Shown here one piece after another: positions 5,310 to 57,664 of a stretch of DNA of 64,000 bases. The DNA is from an uncultured Verrucomicrobiae bacterium (GTDB lineage: Bacteria > Verrucomicrobiota > Verrucomicrobiia > Limisphaerales > Palsa-1400). The notes beneath the pieces are model-generated. The model was not told where the DNA came from. It searched no databases and was given only the letters and a program-made list of their open reading frames with translations. Location of the stretch: positions 4,384,001-4,448,000 of the forward strand of contig OY969763.1 of the NCBI GenBank assembly GCA_963702845.1. The letters run 5' to 3'. How positions within the stretch are numbered: position 1 is the first letter of the stretch; every line of letters starts with the position of its first letter. Both the position numbers and the translations under genes were made by a program.

Positions 5310-5490
5310 GAATGGAACATCGTTGGTTTCAAGTTGTGGCGTTGGTTTCATAGTGGTTTGGTACAAATATTTTTTTGGGTTTAAGTGGACACAGGGGGTC
5401 GTTGTTGGACGAAATTGGATGTTAATGGGCGAAAGTGGGCACCCCCCTCTGGTCGAAAATGGACGAAAGTGGGCAGGCATTGGTAGCAAG
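5310..5490. repeat. Helically phased TGG(A/G)C short-motif array
   Basis: TGG-led units at 5376, 5386, 5406, 5416, 5426, 5436, then 5450, 5460, 5470, 5481. TGGTTT at 5324, 5343, 5354. Confidence 0.7.
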
Positions 5491-5621
5491 CAAGCCGGAG
5501 TCACCATCGACAAAGAATTGTCGTGGCTCGCCCGGTTCGGTGCGGGAATCAAAATCGCCGCGCTGTCTTTATGTTGCATGTATCGCATAACGCGACCGAT
5601 GATGCCATAAAGTCGCTACGC

Positions 5622-5718
5622 GTCAAAAAATGTAGGGAAAGCAGGGAAACCAGGGAAAGAAACAGCACTTTTTCTGCACTAAATCTCACCACCAAGACAC
5701 CAAGGCACAAAGAATGCT
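5622..5718. repeat. Direct repeat copy 1 flanking the cupin gene
   Basis: Shares an identical 25-mer AGGGAAAGAAACAGCACTTTTTCTG (5652-5676) and CAAGGCACAAAGA with 6820-6900. Confidence 0.85.
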
Positions 5719-8154: not shown

Positions 8155-8182
8155 TTGACACGCCGTTGCTTCACGTTATAAT
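8155..8182 (+). promoter_or_regulatory. Consensus sigma70 promoter (member of dispersed element family)
   Basis: TTGACA-cgccgttgcttcacgt(16)-TATAAT, with boxA-like GATCTTTGACAA downstream at 8234-8245. Confidence 0.8.
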
Positions 8183-8448
8183 GCCTTTGGCTGCTGGTGC
8201 TTACCAGCTTCGGTTTGCAGTGCGACCCGATATGATCTTTGACAAAAGTAGAAACATTTCCTTCTACTAATTTTCTCCACTTGGCAACTAATTGCCGGAA
8301 GTAGAAGGAAGTTGCCAGAAGTAGAAACATTCCGATGATATTTTTTCGGACGTCGCCGTTGAAGGTCTATTTAGCCACGAGGATCGCATAGAGCGCAAAG
8401 AATAGAACGCTTGCAAAATGGGATTTGGAAGAGGAAGTTTTAGGGCAA

Positions 8449-12239: not shown

Positions 12240-12427
12240 GAATAGGAAACTGGCACTACGTTCCGGCCTGCAGGCCGGAATGTAGCGGCGCAGGCGTGAT
12301 CGTTCGCCCCTTGGTCTCCCGATTGGGAAGCCCGTCCCGTAGCAGGATCCGCCTGTGCTTTTGCTCCGAACTCGAACCGTTGTTTGAGCGGCAATCCTTG
12401 AACGCTGCCTGCTCGTATATGCAAGAA
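12240..12427 (+). ncRNA. IS110 bridge RNA (predicted; ends approximate)
   Basis: 5' hairpin 12256-12285. Target-binding loop with guides CGCCCCT (12305-12311) and CCCGTAG (12336-12342). Donor-binding loop with guides ACCGTTGTT (12376-12384) and ATGCAAG (12419-12425). Confidence 0.85.
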
Positions 12428-13386
12428 TGAGTCAGAACATTGCCATTATGAACCATATCCCTGCCGTCGTCTATTGTGGCCTGGACGTTTCCAAAGCCTC
12501 TCTCCAACTGGACTTCAACCACCGGATTCACGAGGATCCAAACACCGCGCCCGGCCACAAAACATTAGTTAAGCGGCTGGCTTCAGCGCCTGGCATTCAT
12601 GTTATCTGTGAAGCCACGGGTGGCTACGAACGCGCCATCGTCGCTGCACTGCAAGAGGCAAACATTCCAGTCTCTGTCCTCAATCCTGCACGCGTCCGCC
12701 ACTTCGCACGGGCACAAGGCAGGTTGGCCAAAACGGATCCCATTGATACCACTGTTCTGACCGCTTACGGAACAGCCTTCAAACCCGCCTCCACCCCTGC
12801 GGCCAGCGCCTCTCAAAAACGATTGGCAGAATTGAGCGCCCGTCGTGCTCAACTCATCGATTTGATCGTCATCGAGAAGAATCGAGCTCCGATGCATTTG
12901 CTTCCCGAAGTTGGAAAATTGGCCCGACAACTACTGCGTCAATTGGAGGCTCAAATCAAACACATCGATAAACTGCTGGCGCATCTTCTCAAAGAAGACG
13001 GCGTTCTAGCGGACCGTGCTCAACGTTTGGATGCTATCGCGGGAGTCGGCCTCCATACTGCGGTTATGGTGCTGGCTGAAATGCCAGAACTAGGCACCCT
13101 CAACCGCCGCCAGGCAGCGGCATTGGCTGGGCTGGCTCCAATCAATCGTGATAGCGGTACCTGGAATGGTCCCCGTTCGATTGGCGGCGGTCGCGCCAGT
13201 ACCCGCAGAACTCTTTACATGGCCGCATTAACTGCCAGTCAATATAACAGACACCTAAAGCTCTTTTATCAACGGCTCAAAGACGCCGGCAAACCATCGA
13301 AAGTGGCCCTAACGGCTGTCATGAGAAAGTTGATCATCCTGATGAACCAAATCTTAAAAAACCCAAACTTCATCCTTGCCAGTTAA
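12427..13386 (+). CDS. IS110-family DEDD recombinase/transposase
   Basis: GLDVSK, CEATGGYE and KTDPID (DEDD RuvC-like) motifs, plus C-terminal GLAPINRDSG carrying the conserved Ser. Start may be 12448. Confidence 0.96.
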   Translation: MSQNIAIMNHIPAVVYCGLDVSKASLQLDFNHRIHEDPNTAPGHKTLVKRLASAPGIHVICEATGGYERAIVAALQEANIPVSVLNPARVRHFARAQGRLAKTDPIDTTVLTAYGTAFKPASTPAASASQKRLAELSARRAQLIDLIVIEKNRAPMHLLPEVGKLARQLLRQLEAQIKHIDKLLAHLLKEDGVLADRAQRLDAIAGVGLHTAVMVLAEMPELGTLNRRQAAALAGLAPINRDSGTWNGPRSIGGGRASTRRTLYMAALTASQYNRHLKLFYQRLKDAGKPSKVALTAVMRKLIILMNQILKNPNFILAS

Positions 13387-29869: not shown

Positions 29870-31951
29870 ATGTTCCTAGCCTCGAGCAAACTTCTCTTTC
29901 GTTCTTCCGTGTGCGCTTTGGTCACGTTGTGCGCCACCGTCGCCAGCGCCCACAATACCCTTCTGCCGCAACCACAGCAGGTGCAATTCGATGACGGCAC
30001 AATTTCCGTCAGCAAACTATCTATCCGTTACGCGATGAAACCGGATGCAGAGGATAAGTTCGCCGCGGACGAATTGGCGACGCGCTTGGGTAAAATTACA
30101 GGAACGGAATTTCCCTCGAAGAACCATGGCGCGCAAACGATCACATTACGTCGCACAGGCCAGGGCTCACCAGTTCCAATAAACAACGAATCGGTCGGCC
30201 CGAACTCACGCGAGGCCTACACGCTCAGTGTCAGCAAGAACGGCGCTGAAATTACCGCAGCAACGTCGGCCGGGCTTTATTACGGCGTTCAAACGTTAGT
30301 CCAACTCGTGGAGGACGCGGGTGGCAATGCCGTTTTACCATTTGTGCAGATTCATGATTGGCCGACTCTCGCTTACCGCGGGATGATGGGCGATTTCAGC
30401 GAAGGCGAATTGCTACGCGTTTCCGAGGTGGAGCGCCAGCTCGACACCCTCGCCCGATTCAAGGCCAACCAATATTACTTTTATTCTGAAGCCAGCATCG
30501 AGTTCGATGGCTATGAAGCGGTCAATCCTCTTGGCCGCTACTCCAAGGAAGACGTCCGCCACGTCATCGAATACGCGCGAAAACGCCACATCGACGTCAT
30601 TCCTTGCATGGAACTCTACGGGCACATGCACAACTTGTTCCGTTACGAGAAATTTGCCGATCTCGGTCTGCCGCGTTACGGCGGCGAGTTCGACCCGCGC
30701 AACCCGAAGATCTACGCCGTGATCGACAACTGGATCGAGCAGACGGCAAAACTCTTTCCGAGCGAATGGTATCACGTCGGGTTCGATGAGCCGTGGTCGC
30801 TCGGAAAAATCGGCGTCGTTCCCGGCAAAGATCCCTTCAAAACCTTTATGGACGTGCTGAACCACGTTTCTGAGAAGGCCCAGTCACACGGCAAGCGCGT
30901 CCTGTTTTGGGCCGACATCAACGAAGGCGCGAGCACTTTGTCGAAACATCCCGAGCTGATTAAAGCCATCCCGAACGGTGTCATCGCCTGCCCGTGGGTC
31001 TATGATCCGCACGACGATTATACACCTTGGGTCGAGCCACTGGCCAAAGTCAACGCGCCGACCATGGTCGCACCCGGCGTTTGGGCGTGGAACGAAATCT
31101 TTCCCGACTTCCACAAATCCTTTTTCAATATCAACGAGCTGATCGCGACGGGCCGTAAATTCCACACCCTCGGCGTCATCAATACGACGTGGACCGACAG
31201 CCGCCAGACTATTTACCGCCTGCAATTGCCGGGAATTGCTTTCGGCGCAGCAGCGTCGTGGCAAGCAGAGCGCGTAAACACCAACACGTTCTTTGCAGTC
31301 TATTGCTCCAACACCTATCCACCATCTGTTGCAGGCGAGGTTGCTCCAGCGCTCGAACAACTCTCCACCGTCGAAGAAATTTTCGAGAAAGTTTTGGCGA
31401 CCACATCGCAATCCGCTTTTTGGGCGGATCCACTCGCCCCAGGCCAACTCAAGAAGATCAAGGCGGGGGAACGAGAGTTGCGTCGTGCCCGCTTGCTCGC
31501 TGAAGCTGCCCAGAAACACCTGCAGCGCGCCATGGCGGCCTCAAACGATCCGACGCTCCACTCCTATCTCGTTTCCGCGCACATGTGTGATTACCTCGGC
31601 ATGAAATGCCTGTATGCGCTCGAATGGTCCGATTACTTCCAGCAGTTAAAGGAAAATCCGACGAAGGAACTGGTCTCGCTTTACATCGGTAACCAGATGA
31701 ATTCGACCACCTATGGGATGATCGGCGACCTGCAGGAATTCATCAGCGAGACTCGCGGCCAATATCGCGATGCCTGGCTCGATGAAGCCACGCCCTTCCG
31801 GCTGCAAAGCGCGCTCTATCGTTGGGACAACGAATGGCAATACTGGAACAGCGTGCGTCGCCTCGTTATCGAGAAGGTCCTGCATAGTTGGAAACCTGGC
31901 GAACCTTTCCCGCCACTTGAAACAATCCACCCCAAGCACGACAAGGAATAA
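29870..31951 (+). CDS. GH20-family beta-N-acetylhexosaminidase-like glycosidase, exported
   Basis: Signal peptide, GH20b domain (EAYTL, GLYYGVQTL, IHDWP..YRGMM), HVGFDE catalytic motif. Confidence 0.85.
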   Translation: MFLASSKLLFRSSVCALVTLCATVASAHNTLLPQPQQVQFDDGTISVSKLSIRYAMKPDAEDKFAADELATRLGKITGTEFPSKNHGAQTITLRRTGQGSPVPINNESVGPNSREAYTLSVSKNGAEITAATSAGLYYGVQTLVQLVEDAGGNAVLPFVQIHDWPTLAYRGMMGDFSEGELLRVSEVERQLDTLARFKANQYYFYSEASIEFDGYEAVNPLGRYSKEDVRHVIEYARKRHIDVIPCMELYGHMHNLFRYEKFADLGLPRYGGEFDPRNPKIYAVIDNWIEQTAKLFPSEWYHVGFDEPWSLGKIGVVPGKDPFKTFMDVLNHVSEKAQSHGKRVLFWADINEGASTLSKHPELIKAIPNGVIACPWVYDPHDDYTPWVEPLAKVNAPTMVAPGVWAWNEIFPDFHKSFFNINELIATGRKFHTLGVINTTWTDSRQTIYRLQLPGIAFGAAASWQAERVNTNTFFAVYCSNTYPPSVAGEVAPALEQLSTVEEIFEKVLATTSQSAFWADPLAPGQLKKIKAGERELRRARLLAEAAQKHLQRAMAASNDPTLHSYLVSAHMCDYLGMKCLYALEWSDYFQQLKENPTKELVSLYIGNQMNSTTYGMIGDLQEFISETRGQYRDAWLDEATPFRLQSALYRWDNEWQYWNSVRRLVIEKVLHSWKPGEPFPPLETIHPKHDKE

Positions 31952-31984
31952 GTGGTCGCGCAGCTTACGTCAAAAATATCACGG

Positions 31985-32100
31985 GAAAGTTGCATCTTCC
32001 TGCAACTTGTCGCTCCATCCTGCATTTTGTTGCATTTTTGGTGCAGATTAGTTGCAGTTTTTACGCATTTTCAAAGAACATCTCGGAGAAAGTTGCACTA
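31985..32100. repeat. Helically phased TGCA array
   Basis: TGCA at 31991, 32001, 32021, 32031, 32042, 32053, 32094, with CGCT/CGCA at 32011 and 32064. Confidence 0.8.
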
Positions 32101-32143
32101 TTTTGGCGATCCCCGATGCTGGCATGCACCGGCGGCTAAGGGA

Positions 32144-32172
32144 ATTATAGTTGTGAAGCAACGTTGTGTCAA
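32144..32172 (-). promoter_or_regulatory. Consensus sigma70 promoter (member of dispersed element family)
   Basis: TTGACA-caacgttgcttcacaac(17)-TATAAT on the minus strand, with boxA-like GTTCTTTGAAAA at 32079-32068. Confidence 0.82.
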
Positions 32173-32290
32173 TCGCTTGTAGTATTTGCGGTTGGTTTCG
32201 GGCTTCCGACGCACACACATCTGTCGGCTGTGGTTATTCTACGGCCATTTGTCGTGCGAAGTTACTGCGGACGTGGACGATCCGCACCCC

Positions 32291-32335
32291 AAAAAAATGC
32301 GCCCCGGTTTTCACCGGGGCGCAAATGGTTTTTTT
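32291..32335. terminator. Intrinsic terminator, probably bidirectional
   Basis: TGCGCCCCGGT-tttc-ACCGGGGCGCA with A7 on the left and a T tract on the right. Confidence 0.85.
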
Positions 32336-32349
32336 AGCCTAAGGCTAAG

Positions 32350-34405
32350 TTAGTTAATATCTCCACCTTGATTGATGCCATCAAAGATGTTGTTCAAGGC
32401 ATTCGCAACACGCCGATGACCACGGGCACTTGGCTTGCGCCGCCGCCAACAGTTGCGCGACGGTGTAGTTGGTGTTGTTGGTCAGGCCGAGCGCCGTTCC
32501 ATTGGAACCAACGTTAAAGGTCTTGGTGCCAGTGCCGCCAGGGCTGACGTTGAAACCATAAGGACCGGCCTTCGTGCCGCCAGACAGCGTCGTGCTGGTG
32601 ACATAATCAGCCAGCGCGCCAGCCATTACCTGGGCAATGGTCTTCGGGCTAGTCCCGTTGAAGTAAGTAACGAACTGCGCAGCGACTGTTTTATTGTTCT
32701 TGCCTAGGAGATTACCAAACAAGCACGGATAATTCGTCGCCAAATAGTTGCCGAGACCCGGCGAGGGCATTGCACAGATTAGCGCCTGACCGTTCTTATT
32801 CTGCCAGAAACCGATCGTCGCGGTATCACCATGGCCGAGCGGGCAGTTCGCGTTCGGGCGGACAATGACCTTGAAGTATTTAGTGGTGTGGTTGCCACAA
32901 CTGTCAGTCGCCGTTGCCGTGACAGTGTTCGTGCCAACGCAGAATTGGCTGCCGGACACTGGCGAGTAGGTGATTGTCACGCTGCCGCAATCATCCGTCG
33001 CGGACGCCGAGAACGTCACAGCCGTGCAAGTCGCGTTGCAAACATAGTTGGTGACGTCTTGCACTGTCAGACTCGGCGGTGTCGAATTGACCGTCCAGGT
33101 GATGTGTTGGACGCAGGTCGACTGATTGGTGCAACCATCAGTCGCCACATAGGTGATCGTGCGGGTGCGGCCGCAGCCACTGGAGCTGTCCACATACGAG
33201 TTGGTGACCGTCACGCTGCCGCAATCATCATACGCCGAAATCAAGCTGTTGGTGCCCGTCGGGATGCTGGTCGGATTGCAACCGAGGTATCGATCGTTTG
33301 CGCACTTCGTGATCGTCGGACCGGTCGTGTTGACGATCCAAGTGATGTGTTGGACGCAGGTCGATTTGTTGTTACATGAATCAGTGGCGGTATAGGTAAT
33401 GGTGCGCATGTGGCCGCAGCCGTCGGCAGAATCAACCGAGCCACAGGTAATCACCACACGGCCGCAATCATCGGTCGCAGATGCTTTGGTCAAGTCACAA
33501 TCAGGAATGTTCGTCGGATTGCAGCCGAGGTCCGTGTCGCCGGGGCAGAGGGTGAACAAAGGTGGGGTAGTATCCGCAGTCCAATAAATATGCTGCGTGC
33601 AGCTGGTGCTCAGGCCGCAATTGTCGGTCACAGTATAAACCAGGTCGCGTTCATGAACGCAGCCGGTCACGATATCAGGACCAGCAACGCCGCAAGTGAT
33701 GTTCGAAACACCGCACGACGCAGTGACTGCGATGGAATTCGTATCGCAGGAAGGGATGCTCTTGGGATTGCAGTCCAGATTGATGTCGCCGGCGCACTGG
33801 ATCGTGGGCGGCTGAAACTGCGGTGGTGTCAGGGTTAATTGTGAGTCGAAACTTGTCGTGCCAGCTCCATTGTGATGGATCTTGCCGGAAACGGTCATCG
33901 AATAAGGCGCCGTGATGCTGAACGTGCCGTTTGAGCTGCCGCTATAATTGTTTGATAATCCGGGGAAATCAGCAAGCATCCCGTTCGTCCCAAACGGCGT
34001 ATTGGCTGGATCCAGGAAGTATTGAAACTCCACTGTGCCCTCGCTGTTTCCACCGACCTCTGCATCCCACGTGCCGGATGTAGCAGTAAACCCGGTTTCG
34101 GTATACTCAAGCGTCAGGTCACCAGCACTTGCGGATTGACTCAAGGTGAACAAGTCCATGTATGGCTCGCCAGCAGTGGCACCTGCGGCAGGCTTGGTGA
34201 CACCGACCGTAACATCGAGAAACCAATTGGGTCCGACGGGGCCGTTGTAGACAACAGCGCCGGGATCAGTAGATTGGTCGTTGGCGTCACCGTCAGTGAC
34301 TGTGATTGTGGTGGTACCGTCCGACAACCGAAGCTGGGGAGTCGCAAACGTAGAACACGTAAGCGCCAGTAGAGTTGTCAACGCGAGGATTTGTGGATGT
34401 TTCAT
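32350..34405 (-). CDS. Secreted Cys/Thr-rich protein with tandem HYR-like Ig repeats; 1-nt frameshift near 32410
   Basis: Signal peptide, repeats of ATDDCG..ITC...RTITY.ATD.C.N.STCVQHITW, C-terminal TATIGFWQNKNGQALI domain. The tail VANALNNIFDGINQGGDIN* lies in a shifted frame. Confidence 0.82.
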
Positions 34406-49875: not shown

Positions 49876-50889
49876 TCACCACCAACGGCCCGTTTTATAA
49901 AACTTCGTTTTCATCGGATGCTGCGGCACTTTGCCTTCAGCACCGATGACCCTCACCTCCTCGTTGGCATATTCAGCCCATAACTCTCCCTTGACGGATT
50001 TCGCCAATGTCCGCATTGGTGCCCCATTCGACATTCGTTCATAAGTAAGCAGGCATACCCATCGTTCGTCCTGATACACCCTCGTCTCCTTTGTCCACCC
50101 GTTCTCGTCATACGAATAACGAAAGCTTAAAGTATGGCCTCCGTTTTCTGAATACCATTGGTTCGTCATTACCCCGGAACAATAGTCGGCACCACTGAGA
50201 ATATTCCGGCCCTTGTCGTAATTTTTGCGTGAGACAAGGTTACCGTACGCATTATAAAGACATTCACTCCTGCAGCGTAGCTCTTTTCCGATAAACTCCT
50301 TTAGTGACGTTTCCATACCGCTGGCAGCGTCATACGTCGTGTCGACAATTCTGGCACCCTCCACGGGATTGCTTGTCCTCGTGCGAACAAGAATATCGTT
50401 TTGGTTGAAGATCAGAACCTCCTGCAAGCGCAAAGTATCGTGACGGTCGTATTTCAGCACCAGAACCCGATTGGTCTTGTACTCGAACGTGCTATACGCG
50501 GTCACCTGGTTATCACTCGTCAAGAACTCCAGCTTCTTTATGCAGCCATTGGTTCCATACGTGACGTTCACAACCTCGTTCGTTTTGCCGTGAGCAATGA
50601 TCATCCACCTATCCGGCACTTTTTTGTCACCAGAGTATTCGTATCGGTTCTCCATAGTTTGCACCCCATCCTGAAATGCCGTTGTCCTCACCCGCCGCCC
50701 CTGGGCATCCTCCTCCACGTCGTATCGCCTTCCGAAATTCGGCGCGCCGAGCAAATCACCGACGAATTCGGCGAAACCACATTTTTTGCGGAGCTGGTAG
50801 CGGAAGGAGTGAGTCGTCGCGTGAACGCAGGACGCGAACGCCAGCCATCCGGCCGTGAATACAAAAGCCAGAGTGGCACGTTGACCCAT
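49876..50889 (-). CDS. Exported hypothetical protein with YD/RHS-like beta repeats
   Basis: Signal-like N-terminus MGQRATLAFVFTAGWLAFASCVHA, repeated Y(D/N)xxG turns (YDAASG, YNAYG, YDKG, YDENG). Confidence 0.65.
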   Translation of the reverse strand: MGQRATLAFVFTAGWLAFASCVHATTHSFRYQLRKKCGFAEFVGDLLGAPNFGRRYDVEEDAQGRRVRTTAFQDGVQTMENRYEYSGDKKVPDRWMIIAHGKTNEVVNVTYGTNGCIKKLEFLTSDNQVTAYSTFEYKTNRVLVLKYDRHDTLRLQEVLIFNQNDILVRTRTSNPVEGARIVDTTYDAASGMETSLKEFIGKELRCRSECLYNAYGNLVSRKNYDKGRNILSGADYCSGVMTNQWYSENGGHTLSFRYSYDENGWTKETRVYQDERWVCLLTYERMSNGAPMRTLAKSVKGELWAEYANEEVRVIGAEGKVPQHPMKTKFYKTGRWW

Positions 50890-50933
50890 GCGAAGTTTGT
50901 AGAGACGAGTTCGAACCAATGCAAGTCGATTGG

Positions 50934-51123
50934 CTACGAGGCTGGCATTCGAAACGAGTACGCGTGGGTCCCCCAAGAAGTTTTCAATTCCAAACGCGCC
51001 GAAATCCTGCAGCGCTTCCTCGATCGCCAACGTATCTACGGAACCGACCATTTCGCGAACAAATACGAACTGCAGGCGCGACGGAATTTGGAACGATCAA
51101 TACGGTTGCTAAGAAATAAATAG
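50934..51123 (+). pseudogene. C-terminal fragment of a predicted HD-superfamily phosphohydrolase (COG4339-like)
   Basis: YEAGIRNEYAWVPQEVFNSKRAEILQRFLDRQRIYGTDHFANKYELQARRNL resembles that family's C-terminus. No N-terminal half or start codon. Confidence 0.75.
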
Positions 51124-51151
51124 TTTGCGCCTCATCCGCGAAGCCACTCCG

Positions 51152-51260
51152 ACATCCCGAAGGGATGACTGAAACATAGCCCGGCACTTCAGTGCCGGGA
51201 CCACCCCCCCAAAACGAAGTTTCACGACAGCGCGACGCAGGAGTTAACAAGTTCACGCCT
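51152..51260. repeat. REP-like double hairpin followed by the third copy of the 40-mer
   Basis: CATCCCgaaGGGATG, CCCGGCACTtcAGTGCCGGG, then the 40-mer at 51209-51248. Confidence 0.82.
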
Positions 51261-51339
51261 GCGGCCTTTCTTAATGGTGTATGGCAGGCAAGCAACACAT
51301 TTAATTTGTCTCTGTCTTGTTCTGTTTTAGCATTCGGGA

Positions 51340-52386
51340 ATGGGTAAAGAAGAACCGCAGCGCCCCAGATCGTGGAAGGAAACGTCAGCCTCATGTAAAG
51401 GACAGCTCTTTCGTTGCTTGTTAGCATTTGAATGGGTTTGCAGGTGGGTCGTGTATGGGTTGAGCAAAGTGACTTTGCTCAAGGTTTTGGAATATTTCGG
51501 AAAGCTGACGTTGCTAACATCGTTAATTCTTTGGATTTATCCCGGCTTTCCGCAACGGAAACAAGCATCTGACGATTCAAAAAAATCTCGTCACTACGTA
51601 GCTTGGCAAACAATTAACTCCGCTATCGGCAAACCTGGGAACGCCGGTCGCAGCGATGCGCTACAGGACCTGAACTGTGATGGTGTGCCTTTGAATGGCA
51701 TTTCGTTAACTGGCGGCGTCGTCTTAATTGGGCCTTTAAATCTTTCAAATGCTCGAATGGAAAGCGCAGATTTTTCGGGGGGACGCTACAACAGGGTAGA
51801 TTTTTCTCGCGCCGAATTGATGATGTCAAAGTGGGAAAACACATTTTGCGAAAGCTGCGATTTTCGAGGGGCGTCTTTTTGGGCTGTCACATTCAGGAAT
51901 TCAAAATTTCTTTGGTGCGATTTCAGTGTTGCTGGTGACGGCAAGAATCAGGCGCAGTCCGTATTATTGCCATATTTCGGAGACTCCCCGACTTCGTTCA
52001 CAATATGTAATTTCGTTGGGACGGCGTTACCAATCGGAGAATTGAAGAATGTCGACTTTGCTCACTGCAATTTTGCCGATGCGGAGTTATGGCAACCTTT
52101 CATTGGAACGAATGCGGCATTTGAATTCTGCAACCTCTACAACGCAAAGACTTCGTCTCCTGAGTTTATAAAATGGGCCTATGGTCAACGGCTCGTTTTT
52201 ACAAACATCACAAGCCTTGATAGGTGGCGGTATTGCGTGACAAACGGTTTGACATATCAGCAGGGAGGGCCGGAATTCATGGAATGGGCGTCAAACCAGT
52301 TCACCACTTACATCAAAACCAACGACGTTAAAGCATGGCTTGACTGGAGTCGCCAAAATCTGCCTACCAAACCAAAAGACGCGTAA
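51340..52386 (+). CDS. Pentapeptide-repeat protein with N-terminal membrane anchor
   Basis: LNLSNARMESADFS, VDFSRAEL, CDFRGASF, CNFADAEL. Confidence 0.8.
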   Translation: MGKEEPQRPRSWKETSASCKGQLFRCLLAFEWVCRWVVYGLSKVTLLKVLEYFGKLTLLTSLILWIYPGFPQRKQASDDSKKSRHYVAWQTINSAIGKPGNAGRSDALQDLNCDGVPLNGISLTGGVVLIGPLNLSNARMESADFSGGRYNRVDFSRAELMMSKWENTFCESCDFRGASFWAVTFRNSKFLWCDFSVAGDGKNQAQSVLLPYFGDSPTSFTICNFVGTALPIGELKNVDFAHCNFADAELWQPFIGTNAAFEFCNLYNAKTSSPEFIKWAYGQRLVFTNITSLDRWRYCVTNGLTYQQGGPEFMEWASNQFTTYIKTNDVKAWLDWSRQNLPTKPKDA

Positions 52387-52389
52387 GTT

Positions 52390-52767
52390 ATGAATGAAAA
52401 TCAAGTTATCGAAACACTGAAACAACACTTGTCTGCTCGCGGGTATGCGTTCGTTAGTGAATGTTGCACGACCAAGCAAGGAATAGATCTTGTTATGCGC
52501 AAGGACAACCAAGAGCTTTGGATTGAAGCAAAAGGCGCAACCGGTGCGCGTAAAGGAAGTAACCGTTTTGGAATGAATTTTAACGACCAACAGTGCAATG
52601 ACCATTACTCACGAGCTTTCTTCAAGGTGTGCCAGATGCGCGACAAATCGAAGGAGACCGGAGAACCGATACGTATCGCAATGGCATTTGCCCATACCAA
52701 GCACTATCAGAAGTATTTCGACCGCACAGACGAAACACGCAAGGAATTAGGAATCGCCGTTTATTGA
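52390..52767 (+). CDS. Small PD-(D/E)xK restriction-endonuclease-like protein
   Basis: MNENQV..L...GY, GIDL, WIEAKG motif. The frame continues 9 codons beyond the TGA. Confidence 0.72.
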   Translation: MNENQVIETLKQHLSARGYAFVSECCTTKQGIDLVMRKDNQELWIEAKGATGARKGSNRFGMNFNDQQCNDHYSRAFFKVCQMRDKSKETGEPIRIAMAFAHTKHYQKYFDRTDETRKELGIAVY

Positions 52768-52834
52768 GTGACGTCCGGAGGAGTGACCGAAGTCTAAGTT
52801 CCAAAAGAAGAGCACTTGAGCGTCCGGCGACTTC

Positions 52835-54070
52835 TTACGAAAGCAGCATTGTGTCGAACTCTTTCGCTGTTGGGATCCTGCCTGAACTCAACACGTGTTC
52901 TCTTAACCGCTGAATACTTTTTTGAACGACCGAGAAAAGCTGGCCCACCTGTTCTGGAGAAATGTCACCGTTGTTTGATGTCGCACCATGAACGATCTTG
53001 TGGCGTTTGTCGAAAAGCTTTCGAACAATGTCGTTAACCCGGAGTCGAGACTCGACACTATCCTCAATAAACTTCGCGCACCTCAGCGCAACCTTGTAGC
53101 CGATTGCGCCCGGCCCGTCGCCAAACAATGCTTCGAGCGCTATCAATAAATCTACGATTTGATCCGCGACGCTAGTCCTTTGAGCCGCTGAATTAACGCG
53201 AGTGATTGCGGTGGATAATGGCGGGCACCTGCCGGCTTTCGGAAGAAATTCGAACATTGTTTGAAGTTCTCTTATGTCGCTTTTGGCTAGCGAGTAGGTC
53301 GGAAGGTGAAGCGCATCGGTACTCATGCCCGAGCCATACTCAACGAAAGGCAATTGACCAGTGCGTTCGCCCCGAACCCACATTGATTGCCAAGTTACGC
53401 AACCAAATTTCACTAGTAGCAGTGCAGCGGTAATGTCATTGAATACCTTTTGAGCTGTGATGTGAATGTCGCACGCGACGTGCCCGGCAGGGACACTTGA
53501 ATGAATCTCCATTATGCACATGTCGAACGACATCGCGGAGATGGGTATCTGGCATCCACCGCCACCGAAATAATCTACTACGTCACCGTCGCTCAGTTTG
53601 CGGATACGCACTGTTGATGTAAGCCAGTGTTCTTCAAAACCCATCGTTAATCCCAACACAACAGCAAAACACATCGCGAGGGAACTTTTCGCCTCTAACG
53701 ATCGGAGGAAGCCGGCCGCTATGGCGTCTGCTTCAGCAGGAGCGAACCCGAGATTCGAAACACGTCTAAAATAATCGGTTGCGATTTTGACGGCAATCAA
53801 TTCAGGCTGGGTCCAGTAGCCAGCAGGCAGGGCGTTGTAGCGAGGATCGGATTGCAGCTCCGACACAAATTTCGCAACGGAGTGGAAACGGAGAGAAGGA
53901 TGATTGAGGATAACACCAAAACTGGGAGCGTTTCCTCCTATGATTTGACAGTTGCCTTCTTTTCTTTCAATTCGGCAATTAGTCCACGCTTGTTGCTCAA
54001 AAGGCATTTTCGCAAACAATTCCGAGGAGAGTTCACGCAAAAAGCTGGTCACTTTCGATTCATCAACCAT
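52835..54070 (-). CDS. HEPN-domain protein (ApeA-like architecture)
   Basis: C-terminal IALEAL...RHKIVHG (E...Rx4H) after a long N-terminal domain. Confidence 0.8.
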   Translation of the reverse strand: MVDESKVTSFLRELSSELFAKMPFEQQAWTNCRIERKEGNCQIIGGNAPSFGVILNHPSLRFHSVAKFVSELQSDPRYNALPAGYWTQPELIAVKIATDYFRRVSNLGFAPAEADAIAAGFLRSLEAKSSLAMCFAVVLGLTMGFEEHWLTSTVRIRKLSDGDVVDYFGGGGCQIPISAMSFDMCIMEIHSSVPAGHVACDIHITAQKVFNDITAALLLVKFGCVTWQSMWVRGERTGQLPFVEYGSGMSTDALHLPTYSLAKSDIRELQTMFEFLPKAGRCPPLSTAITRVNSAAQRTSVADQIVDLLIALEALFGDGPGAIGYKVALRCAKFIEDSVESRLRVNDIVRKLFDKRHKIVHGATSNNGDISPEQVGQLFSVVQKSIQRLREHVLSSGRIPTAKEFDTMLLS

Positions 54071-54121
54071 GAAGTTTAAATATCTCTATGGAGAAGGCCA
54101 GTCCAACACATAACAGAGCCC

Positions 54122-54193
54122 AACTTGACAAGTAGCTACTTCCTCTGCTAAGATTTAGCAGCCAGCCCAAGTCGGCCGGCTAAAAAACCTCGG
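54122..54193 (+). repeat. 72-bp direct repeat copy 1 containing a sigma70 promoter
   Basis: TTGACA-18-TAAGAT with TGn extension. Spacer holds the perfect palindrome AAGTAGCTACTT. Three mismatches against 54974-55045. Confidence 0.9.
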
Positions 54194-54296
54194 TTTAGCC
54201 GGGGCATGCTCTTTGAAGAATGAGCCACGCCACAAGTTTGCGACTTCTATTAGCGAATCGCCGGCAACCCTGCCAACACGCAGATTCCTGCGCCAG

Positions 54297-54854
54297 TTAC
54301 TTATTTAAGAAAATCGACTTACGGATAAGGTCCGTGCGAAGCATAATCGGCTCTTCAAAATCGAGAACGATGTGAGTGACGAGCGTGGAATCTCGGGTTG
54401 GATTAGTTTTGTCATCGATTGTAATCGGGAGAGATGTCGGGTTTAGGTCCCGATGAAAGTCCATGGGAATTCCAACGGTACACTGTAGGACTGCGCTTGC
54501 AAATGCTGGATTGAAAGGAACTCCGCCAGAAACCGACAAATGAATACCTTGGACAGGGGCACTTCCACCATTCCCCAGTGCCTGAACATCTGCTGTGGAA
54601 TTGAAGGTTCCTGCAATAGTCGGAGGAACCATGTAAACTTGGTTTCCCATTTTTACGCTATGCATCGGAGTATACCTGAGGTTGGTTTTCTGTACAATAT
54701 CTGTTTTTACATCTGAACCAGGTCCCGGATCGGTTGGATCGGTATATTCTTCGTGGTACGTGAAACGCAGAGGAACGAACACTCCGTGCAGGGGGTGAAG
54801 CTGCGCTTGAAGCGCAGCGCACTTCTGGAAAACAGATTCAATTGTAAGAGCCAT
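54297..54854 (-). CDS. Hypothetical protein between the 72-bp repeats
   Basis: 185-aa ORF with ATG start and no competing ORF. No recognisable motif. Confidence 0.65.
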   Translation of the reverse strand: MALTIESVFQKCAALQAQLHPLHGVFVPLRFTYHEEYTDPTDPGPGSDVKTDIVQKTNLRYTPMHSVKMGNQVYMVPPTIAGTFNSTADVQALGNGGSAPVQGIHLSVSGGVPFNPAFASAVLQCTVGIPMDFHRDLNPTSLPITIDDKTNPTRDSTLVTHIVLDFEEPIMLRTDLIRKSIFLNK

Positions 54855-54973: not shown

Positions 54974-55045
54974 AACTTGACAAGTAGCTACTTCCTTTGC
55001 TAGGATTTAGCAGCCAGCCCAAGTAGGCCGGCTAAAAAACCTCGG
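54974..55045 (+). repeat. 72-bp direct repeat copy 2 containing a sigma70 promoter
   Basis: TTGACA-18-TAGGAT, with boxA-like GCTCTTTGAAAA downstream at 55133-55144. Confidence 0.9.
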
Positions 55046-55160
55046 CGAGGATTGCTTAGCGTGCGAGGCCGACGTTCGGCTTCTGCACTCTGCACTCTGC
55101 ATTCTGACCTCTGCATTTGAGAACCGAGGCGCGCTCTTTGAAAACTTGCAACGAAAGTCA

Positions 55161-55380
55161 TGACCCTTTGCGACCAATAGCGACGACTAACGACGAGATA
55201 CGACCAATAAGAAGGGGGATAGCCCCGGGTGGGGGGGGCTACTTCGCAGAAACATGGAGAAACTTCGGAGAAACAAATAACGTTAAAGAGTTTCTCCGAA
55301 GTTTCTCCAACCCTTCTCGGATGTTTCTCCATGTTTCTCCAAAGAGAAACAATGGGAAGGAATGTGCCACAATGGGAAAC
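55161..55380. repeat. Phased CGAC and GAAAC arrays with a 20-bp perfect inverted repeat
   Basis: CGAC at 55171/81/91/201. TGGAGAAACTTCGGAGAAAC (55255-55274) pairs with 55290-55309. Confidence 0.85.
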
Positions 55381-55396
55381 ATTTTTGAATTTTGAT

Positions 55397-55486
55397 GCGA
55401 GGCCGACGTTCGGCGCGAGGCCGACGTTCGGCGCGAGGCCGACGTTCGGCGCGAGGCCGACGTTGGTTGCGAGGCCGACGTTCGGC
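55397..55486. repeat. 18-bp tandem repeat x5 (solo copy at 55063-55080)
   Basis: GCGAGGCCGACGTTCGGC units; the fourth copy ends in GGTT. Confidence 0.95.
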
Positions 55487-55487
55487 A

Positions 55488-57587: not shown

Positions 57588-57664
57588 TGGAGCGAGCGAA
57601 GGGATTCGAACCCTCGACATTCACCTTGGCAAGGTGACGCTCTACCAGACTGAGCTACGCTCGC
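57588..57664 (-). tRNA. tRNA-Gly (GCC)
   Basis: GCGAGCG acceptor stem, D arm AGCTCAGTCTGGTAGAGC, anticodon arm TCACC-TTGCCAA-GGTGA, GGTTCGAATCC and encoded CCA. Confidence 0.97.

Follow-up and report, generated by a model that had tools for sequence, protein, structure and literature searches.

The minus-strand element at 32172-31972 raises the question of what a consensus promoter, an antitermination signal and a helically phased repeat array are doing together where there is no coding sequence to drive. It lies in a window of 64,000 nucleotides, the whole stretch of DNA that was analysed, from an uncultured Verrucomicrobiae bacterium (GCA_963702845.1, contig OY969763.1, positions 4,384,001 to 4,448,000). 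The genome of the window, termed G000 here, is a single contig of 6.03 Mb with a completeness of 89.8%, and close protein homologues carry the source label Limisphaerales or Verrucomicrobiota. A first-pass annotation, made from the letters of the window, had described the order promoter, two hairpins, boxA and phased array. This order was confirmed (Table 1). The promoter equals the consensus at 12/12 positions and is the sole promoter match in 31500-32600; a transcription start is predicted near 32137 (-). The TGC(A/G) units of the array are spaced by 11, 11, 11, 10, 20 and 10, and the phasing score of 21 (mean 2.5) was reached by 0/2000 dinucleotide shuffles. The array itself was correctly recognized, but its true end is a T tract at 31972, 8 bp beyond the limit first given. 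The element was also correctly described as antisense to the GH20 gene, whose 3' end it faces. An intrinsic terminator insulates it from the upstream HYR-domain gene. The CTAC/TTAC sequence upstream of the -35 box may represent an operator half-site or a boundary, and the family motif G(T/C)(A/T)(G/A)CTTC in the promoter spacer is a likely operator. No start-led reading frame was found in the array of the 32172 copy and its units step by 10-11, and the array was rejected as coding sequence on these grounds.

Table 1. Coordinates of the features. Positions refer to the window, except for the family-2 loci, which are given with their locus names.
Feature	Position	Strand	Remarks
Conserved CTAC/TTAC just 5' of the -35 box	32179-32182	-	Left edge of family homology
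Sigma-70 promoter TTGACA-17-TATAAT	32172-32144	-	-35 at 32172-32167, -10 at 32149-32144
Hairpin 1, boxB-like position	32133-32118	-	One C-A mismatch in the 32172 copy
Hairpin 2, variable loop	32116-32083	-	Family covariation
boxA GTTCTTTGAAAA	32079-32068 (feature 32081-32068)	-	Putative NusB/S10 site, by similarity
Phased module of seven TGC(A/G) units with conserved tail and terminal T tract	32067-31972	-	Shuffles; common 3' end
Intrinsic terminator of the upstream HYR-domain gene	32323-32298	-	11-bp stem and T tail
Second copy, complete, with promoter, both hairpins, boxA and an AAGT(A/T)G module variant	8155-8346	+	
Leader-only copy	54125-54218	+	Array not detected downstream
Copy with REP-like insert in hairpin 2	54977-55390	+	boxA 55133-55143; CGACC, GGAGAAAC/TTCTCC and CAATG modules
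Sister-class copy lacking boxA, with promoter, leader, phased module and start codon	5349-5640	-	Gene body absent
Family-2 loci	L060:1312-1683, L062:1164-1574 and five more		

The element belongs to a dispersed family. The copies previously noted at 8155(+), 54125(+) and 54977(+) are all real, although 54125 has no detectable array and the -10 boxes of 54125 and 54977 are poor. The supposed looser copy at 5626(-) has neither hairpins nor boxA; it is the copied leader of a small-terminase-like gene, and the stretch 5349-5640 aligns almost collinearly to the leader that precedes the gp27-like small-terminase gene at genome position 1810462. An iterated profile retrieved 40 copies in G000 at E<=0.01 and 0 in the reversed genome. 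A covariance model likewise found 40 copies in G000, 20 in the congener G002, 2 in G001 and none across the 38 remaining genomes of the search. When a promoter matrix was used, boxA lay downstream of 47/380 sites compared to 3/449 in the reversed control. BLAST of the 32172 copy against 40 relatives gave no match, and profile and pattern searches were needed. Neither the five window copies nor the leaders of eight further loci matched an Rfam family, and a literature search confined to main texts, mostly of papers outside subscription, returned no description of the family. As the first-pass annotation had supposed, these leaders and phased arrays thus appear, by sequence, as an undescribed multicopy non-coding family of the antitermination type. 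A MITE was rejected: twelve copies had at most 7/14 terminal matches, no flush target duplication and no terminal inverted repeats. Retrons or other repeats made by a reverse transcriptase were rejected upon 0 PF00078 matches in the 89.8% complete genome, a search that divergent reverse transcriptases may escape.

Both hairpins covary across the family. In 30 copies, 92% of the cells of hairpin 1 and 81% of those of hairpin 2 were paired, with double changes in 3/6 and 3/5 pairs, respectively. For both hairpins together 87% of cells were paired, which was reached by 0/500 shuffles, and slid controls gave 20-52%. This covariation is modest support, because the structure was drawn from the same, related sequences. 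The claim of two hairpins holds at the level of the family, but the leader of the 32172 copy folds no better than shuffles (z 0.0). The next gene lies in sense in 18 and in antisense in 20 of the 38 full leaders. Therefore, the family serves no host CDS, as had been stated for the 32172 copy.

The family boxA resembles the three boxA of the single rRNA operon of G000 (leader and spacer). It also agrees with the Bacillus boxA consensus, which was shown to bind NusB according to the accessible part of the source (PMC13753749). As in the leaders of rRNA operons and CRISPR arrays, a boxA of the same sequence as the G000 rRNA boxA is located 3' of a promoter and a 5' hairpin. Unlike there, about 40 dispersed copies precede 10-bp-phased modules, with no rRNA or CRISPR array. 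A CRISPR array was rejected for the repeats themselves, which consist of degenerate 10-bp units in modules common to several loci and not of identical 23-47-bp repeats with unique spacers. Genes of the NusB family and of Rho are present in G000 with two matches each, of which one PF01029 match may be an RsmB-type domain. The two matches to the Rho RNA-binding domain are at genome positions 2028759 and 4238664.

The genome has 259 phased triplet modules; 181 of them lie between genes, and some of these 181 are of other repeat types. The period is 10 in 133 intergenic modules and 13 in 3. A module follows 33 of the 38 leaders and precedes 3. Among 59 leader-linked modules an A/T tract is found 3' in 34, 5' in 1, on both sides in 2 and on neither side in 22; the modules are directional. 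Motif types are many and are chained in differing orders. A separate motif had been assigned to each array, a view that does not hold for the TGCA array at 32172 and the AAGT(A/T)G array at 8155, which are two versions of a single module and share its 3' end. Folding was better on the transcribed strand for 18/38 arrays and 23/38 leaders. The promoter-spacer motif resembles a module in G000; no such resemblance was seen in G006 and G020. The array clusters (117) have a mean gap of 51 kb with a CV of 0.84 and a largest gap of 280 kb. An even, headful-like spacing was rejected, since these gaps are close to random. A separate excess of period-7 intergenic repeats was noted at 96 sites of the genome.

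Comparison with the congener G002 revealed how the arrays change. From 28 loci, 17 were parsed and 16 mapped to G000, 8 of them with the G000 leader at the orthologous site. These eight sites carry mostly different modules in the two genomes: the leader stays in place and its modules are exchanged. At one locus, compared by eye, the element is present in G002 and absent in G000. With respect to the order of acquisition, the distal modules are common at one parsed locus, a common module is repositioned at another and four loci have none in common, a pattern without evident strict polarity at the leader end. Synteny breaks were found at 6/8 module-containing junctions vs 3/11 in 20 arbitrary G002 contigs, small numbers that are only suggestive of module junctions being rearrangement breakpoints.

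Besides this modular and swappable nature of the arrays, the first-pass annotation missed a link to small-terminase-like genes. From the 5626 copy, a sister class of promoters that lack boxA was recognized (27 copies); it is the leader of Mu gp27-like genes. G000 contains 14 loci of such gp27-like small terminases (PF11985), and 9/11 of the proteins scanned matched the small terminase phrog_426 (E 8e-10 to 0.035). terL follows at 7/14 loci (6 intact, 1 split). A module is located <=250 bp from an end in 11/14 gp27-like loci, two of which were reached through a back-to-back array, and in 7/7 family-2 HTH genes, compared to 307/4626 ORFs (6.6%). Modules adjoin the start codons of gp27-like and terL genes and are also found after the stops of solo gp27-like genes, with nothing downstream to regulate. 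Two gp27-like loci in G000 and one in G002 stand back-to-back with boxA leaders; no small-terminase gene is near the 32172 copy itself. The linkage of terminase units to the arrays is strong, and we hold it to be very probably genuine. Predicted models of gp27-like proteins have an N-terminal helical bundle and long helices. Foldseek and VIA-align of two models returned generic helical matches, those to the P74-26 and G20c small terminases being not significant (E 1.0-2.0). The family-2 genes encode unnamed HTH and coiled-coil proteins of 122-136 aa with 794 homologues, and chains of modules lie directly 3' of them. They have weak TerS-like matches only.

A protease-capsid pair and a run of adaptor, portal and terL genes likewise begin with the sister promoter, and the joining of boxA leaders to terminase units and a head module is new here. 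A head-only phage module (L327:4000-13252, genome 5.240-5.249 Mb) comprises protease, capsid, adaptor, portal and a split terL, with two sister-class promoters. The gene order of the head module is kept in G002, the capsid is 90% identical and dN/dS of the head genes is 0.10-0.18; one terL of the head module is split in G000. Pairwise dN/dS was 0.19-0.58 for gp27-like genes (six pairs) and 0.10-0.18 for family 2 (three pairs). Terminase, portal and capsid genes are under purifying selection. No tape-measure gene was found at the head module with PF10145, a point of comparison with the capsid-forming PICIs (cf-PICIs). One capsid query gave no match in G016 and G020.

For the function of the arrays we favour, with a probability of roughly 0.45, that the modules are DNA loading (pac-like) sites for domesticated small-terminase-like rings, by which packaging would be diverted. 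The original interpretation as antiterminated non-coding units or protein-loading platforms is partly supported, and the platform idea is compatible with the data. The unit would be transcribed, and boxA would load NusB and S10 such that Rho spares the untranslated RNA. The operator in the promoter spacer would co-regulate arrays and packaging genes, likely upon infection. Each 10-bp unit would face one HTH of a TerS ring, and the packaging of an infecting phage would be diverted onto decoys or host DNA, resulting in fewer viable phage, transduction of host DNA, or both. Binding of gp27-like or family-2 proteins to the modules has about even odds; a role in defence or gene transfer is more doubtful.

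The hexamer repeats of the P1 pac site have a 10-bp spacing. Like phage pac sites, the modules are directional short direct repeats beside a small-terminase gene and promoter. Unlike these, they comprise dozens of motif types, are chained and swapped, lie mostly far from a terminase gene and behind an antitermination-type promoter, and are rare in related phages. In TerS rings the HTHs are about one DNA turn apart and DNA is wrapped, and the direct repeats of SPP1 pac span the terS promoters, as described in the accessible part of one source (PMC4737164). There, however, binding of pac repeats by the SF6 TerS domain is described as non-specific, which is against the pac reading. In P1, seven hexamer repeats are bound by PacA/B (PMC10028697, accessible part), and chromosomal pac-like sites can direct transduction, as for P22 in the accessible text of PMC11260489. 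The PICI protein Rpp blocks and redirects the packaging of the helper phage (PMC6739421, accessible part), and by analogy stand-alone TerS-like proteins could act on packaging as Rpp does. In contrast to PICIs, the Mu gp27-family genes appear scattered singly among host genes and not on an island. No integrase or primase was found in the gp27-like neighbourhoods listed, the flanks of which read as host genes by eye. Further points argue against the pac reading: most arrays have no terminase gene nearby, a pac site does not need boxA, the spacer motif has no module counterpart in G006 and G020, one terL of the head module is split, the single capsid query had no match in G016 and G020, and the TerS-like matches of family 2 are weak. 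The loading-array reading leaves the need for an antiterminated transcript unaccounted for.

Related genomes provide further evidence on the linkage. gp27-like genes were present in 23/24 family members searched, and among the gp27-like loci returned from relatives 12/28 had a module within ~70 bp of start or stop. A loose -35/boxA pattern gave 21 matches in G012 (a shorter spacing class), 9 in G006 and 4 in G020, some of them coding-sequence noise, vs 0-1 per genome in controls. Among its matches were also the boxA leaders of CRISPR arrays in Verrucomicrobia, in G016 (L242) and G022 (L246); these serve as an internal control when the pattern is applied to non-coding arrays. Among the matches listed, the leader families of G006, G012, G020 and G022 have only the -35 box and boxA in common with G000, and the same kind of module follows. 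In G012, 6/8 gp27-like genes stand back-to-back with a boxA leader, and in the other 2 the stop is followed by a module at a distance of 15-30 bp. A hand-picked set of 21 gp27-like loci, further to the 28 above, comprised 13 with a module in or next to the gene, 6 with a boxA leader back-to-back and 2 with neither; no terL was found within 3.5-4.5 kb around these 21. Orthologous or similar gp27-like genes carry different motifs, so that no motif-protein code is demonstrated, and this counts against the pac reading. The gp27-like ORFs of G016 (L294-L297, L299) have 340-380 aa, and their long C-terminal tail reads through a phased module. In G006 and G020 (L243, L249, L252, L257, L303) a palindrome TCCCA-N7-TGGGA lies over the boxA-leader promoters, and a wider-spaced form is found 5' of a gp27-like gene.

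Phage loci were retrieved by terL alignment; single gp27-like protein queries had found no relative in viral searches or GenBank phages. In 50/80 phage loci a gp27-like gene is located directly before terL, which supports the TerS call. Direct repeats adjoin the terS gene or promoter for the module class in the bacterial genome, but the same position is not kept in the cognate phages: a module lay at the stop of 1/42 gp27-like genes (72 distinct contigs), and 17 intergenic phased modules were found elsewhere. A promoter-boxA leader was absent from the 80 viral loci, and two full prophages of the same type had no module by the same rule. Thus, related phages mostly lack the module layout, which is against a simple pac reading. 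Mu-like phage contigs (L136, L142, L143, L144, L200) have occasional phased modules where terS meets terL, 3' of terL or close to head genes, and are a possible source of the array modules.

Other explanations were weighed against these data. The modules might be RNA sites that control terS/terL translation, with the antiterminated arrays titrating proteins as CsrB does CsrA. Such a sponge would account for the promoter, the covarying hairpins and boxA. It agrees with the 3' polarity and with modules adjoining the start codons of gp27-like and terL genes, often ending in an A tract. Against it, modules follow the stops of solo genes without a downstream target, the strict 10-bp period suits double-stranded DNA, the G000 motif also occurs in the untranscribed promoter spacer and arrays fold no better on the transcribed strand (18/38). 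Because of the last three points DNA is favoured over RNA, and we regard the sponge as quite unlikely. Portable promoter-antitermination cassettes that drive or silence host neighbours, the modules being sites of a host regulator or nucleoid protein, are improbable. Some copies do lie 5' of housekeeping genes in both congeners, and in-frame fusions to host ORFs occur among the sister-class copies, but copies are oriented at random relative to the next gene (sense in 18, antisense in 20) and the terminase linkage would be left unaccounted for.

Streptococcus pneumoniae BOX elements and REPINs are intergenic repeats of modular build, dispersed in the genome and present in one relative but absent from another; 'boxA' in pneumococcus has only the name in common. 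The arrays could in the same manner be selfish or neutral repeats, scraps of a phage late operon that recombination or REP-associated Y1 transposases would have copied and shuffled and that lack a common function. The presence/absence and module turnover between the congeners, the excess of synteny breaks at module junctions, the left boundary at CTAC/TTAC and seven Y1 transposase matches are in line with this, as is a REP-like 18-mer near the arrays in 17/50 clusters (12.7% expected). REPs, which stand as inverted pairs at the ends of REPINs, adjoin only some of the copies. However, the elements differ from BOX and REPINs in their own promoter and antitermination signal, the many module types and the linkage to packaging genes. 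Copying without function is also at odds with independent leader families (boxA alone in common) preceding the same kind of module in G006, G012, G020 and G022, with purifying selection on the linked genes, with leaders kept at orthologous sites while arrays changed and with twelve copies lacking target duplications and terminal inverted repeats. We consider neutral repeats unlikely. The REP-like 18-mer stands in tandem at window positions 55398-55487 and 55063-55080; it has 53 genome copies, several of them fused to a leader -35 box or boxA.

If the modules are loading sites for small-terminase-like rings, they would represent an undescribed interference with phage packaging, or a programmed gene transfer, from non-coding cassettes and not from an island. 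A chromosome-wide domesticated packaging system, in which a tail-less head module, many TerS variants and >100 pac-like array clusters form one regulon, is rather unlikely. If it were true, the cell would jam the terminases of diverse phages and begin packaging of its own chromosome at sites built into it, and the arrays would be an updatable library of packaging signals. With this family, boxA antitermination would no longer be confined to rRNA and CRISPR leaders but would include a multicopy class that arose in several genera with leaders that differ. Even if neutral, the repeats may mark rearrangement breakpoints.

Some neighbours of the elements were recorded in the window. The region 49876-54854 contains poorly annotated genes, among them a weak HEPN RiboL-PSP match (52835-54070) and a pentapeptide protein, and may be a small defence island. 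An orphan gene lies between the leaders at 54125 and 54977. An Acido-Lenti-1 RNA was found at 51153-51199 (-) with 41.2 bits, the Rfam gathering score being 37. Furthermore, the window carries an IS110-family transposase at 12427-13386 (+) and a tRNA-Gly at 57588-57664 (-).
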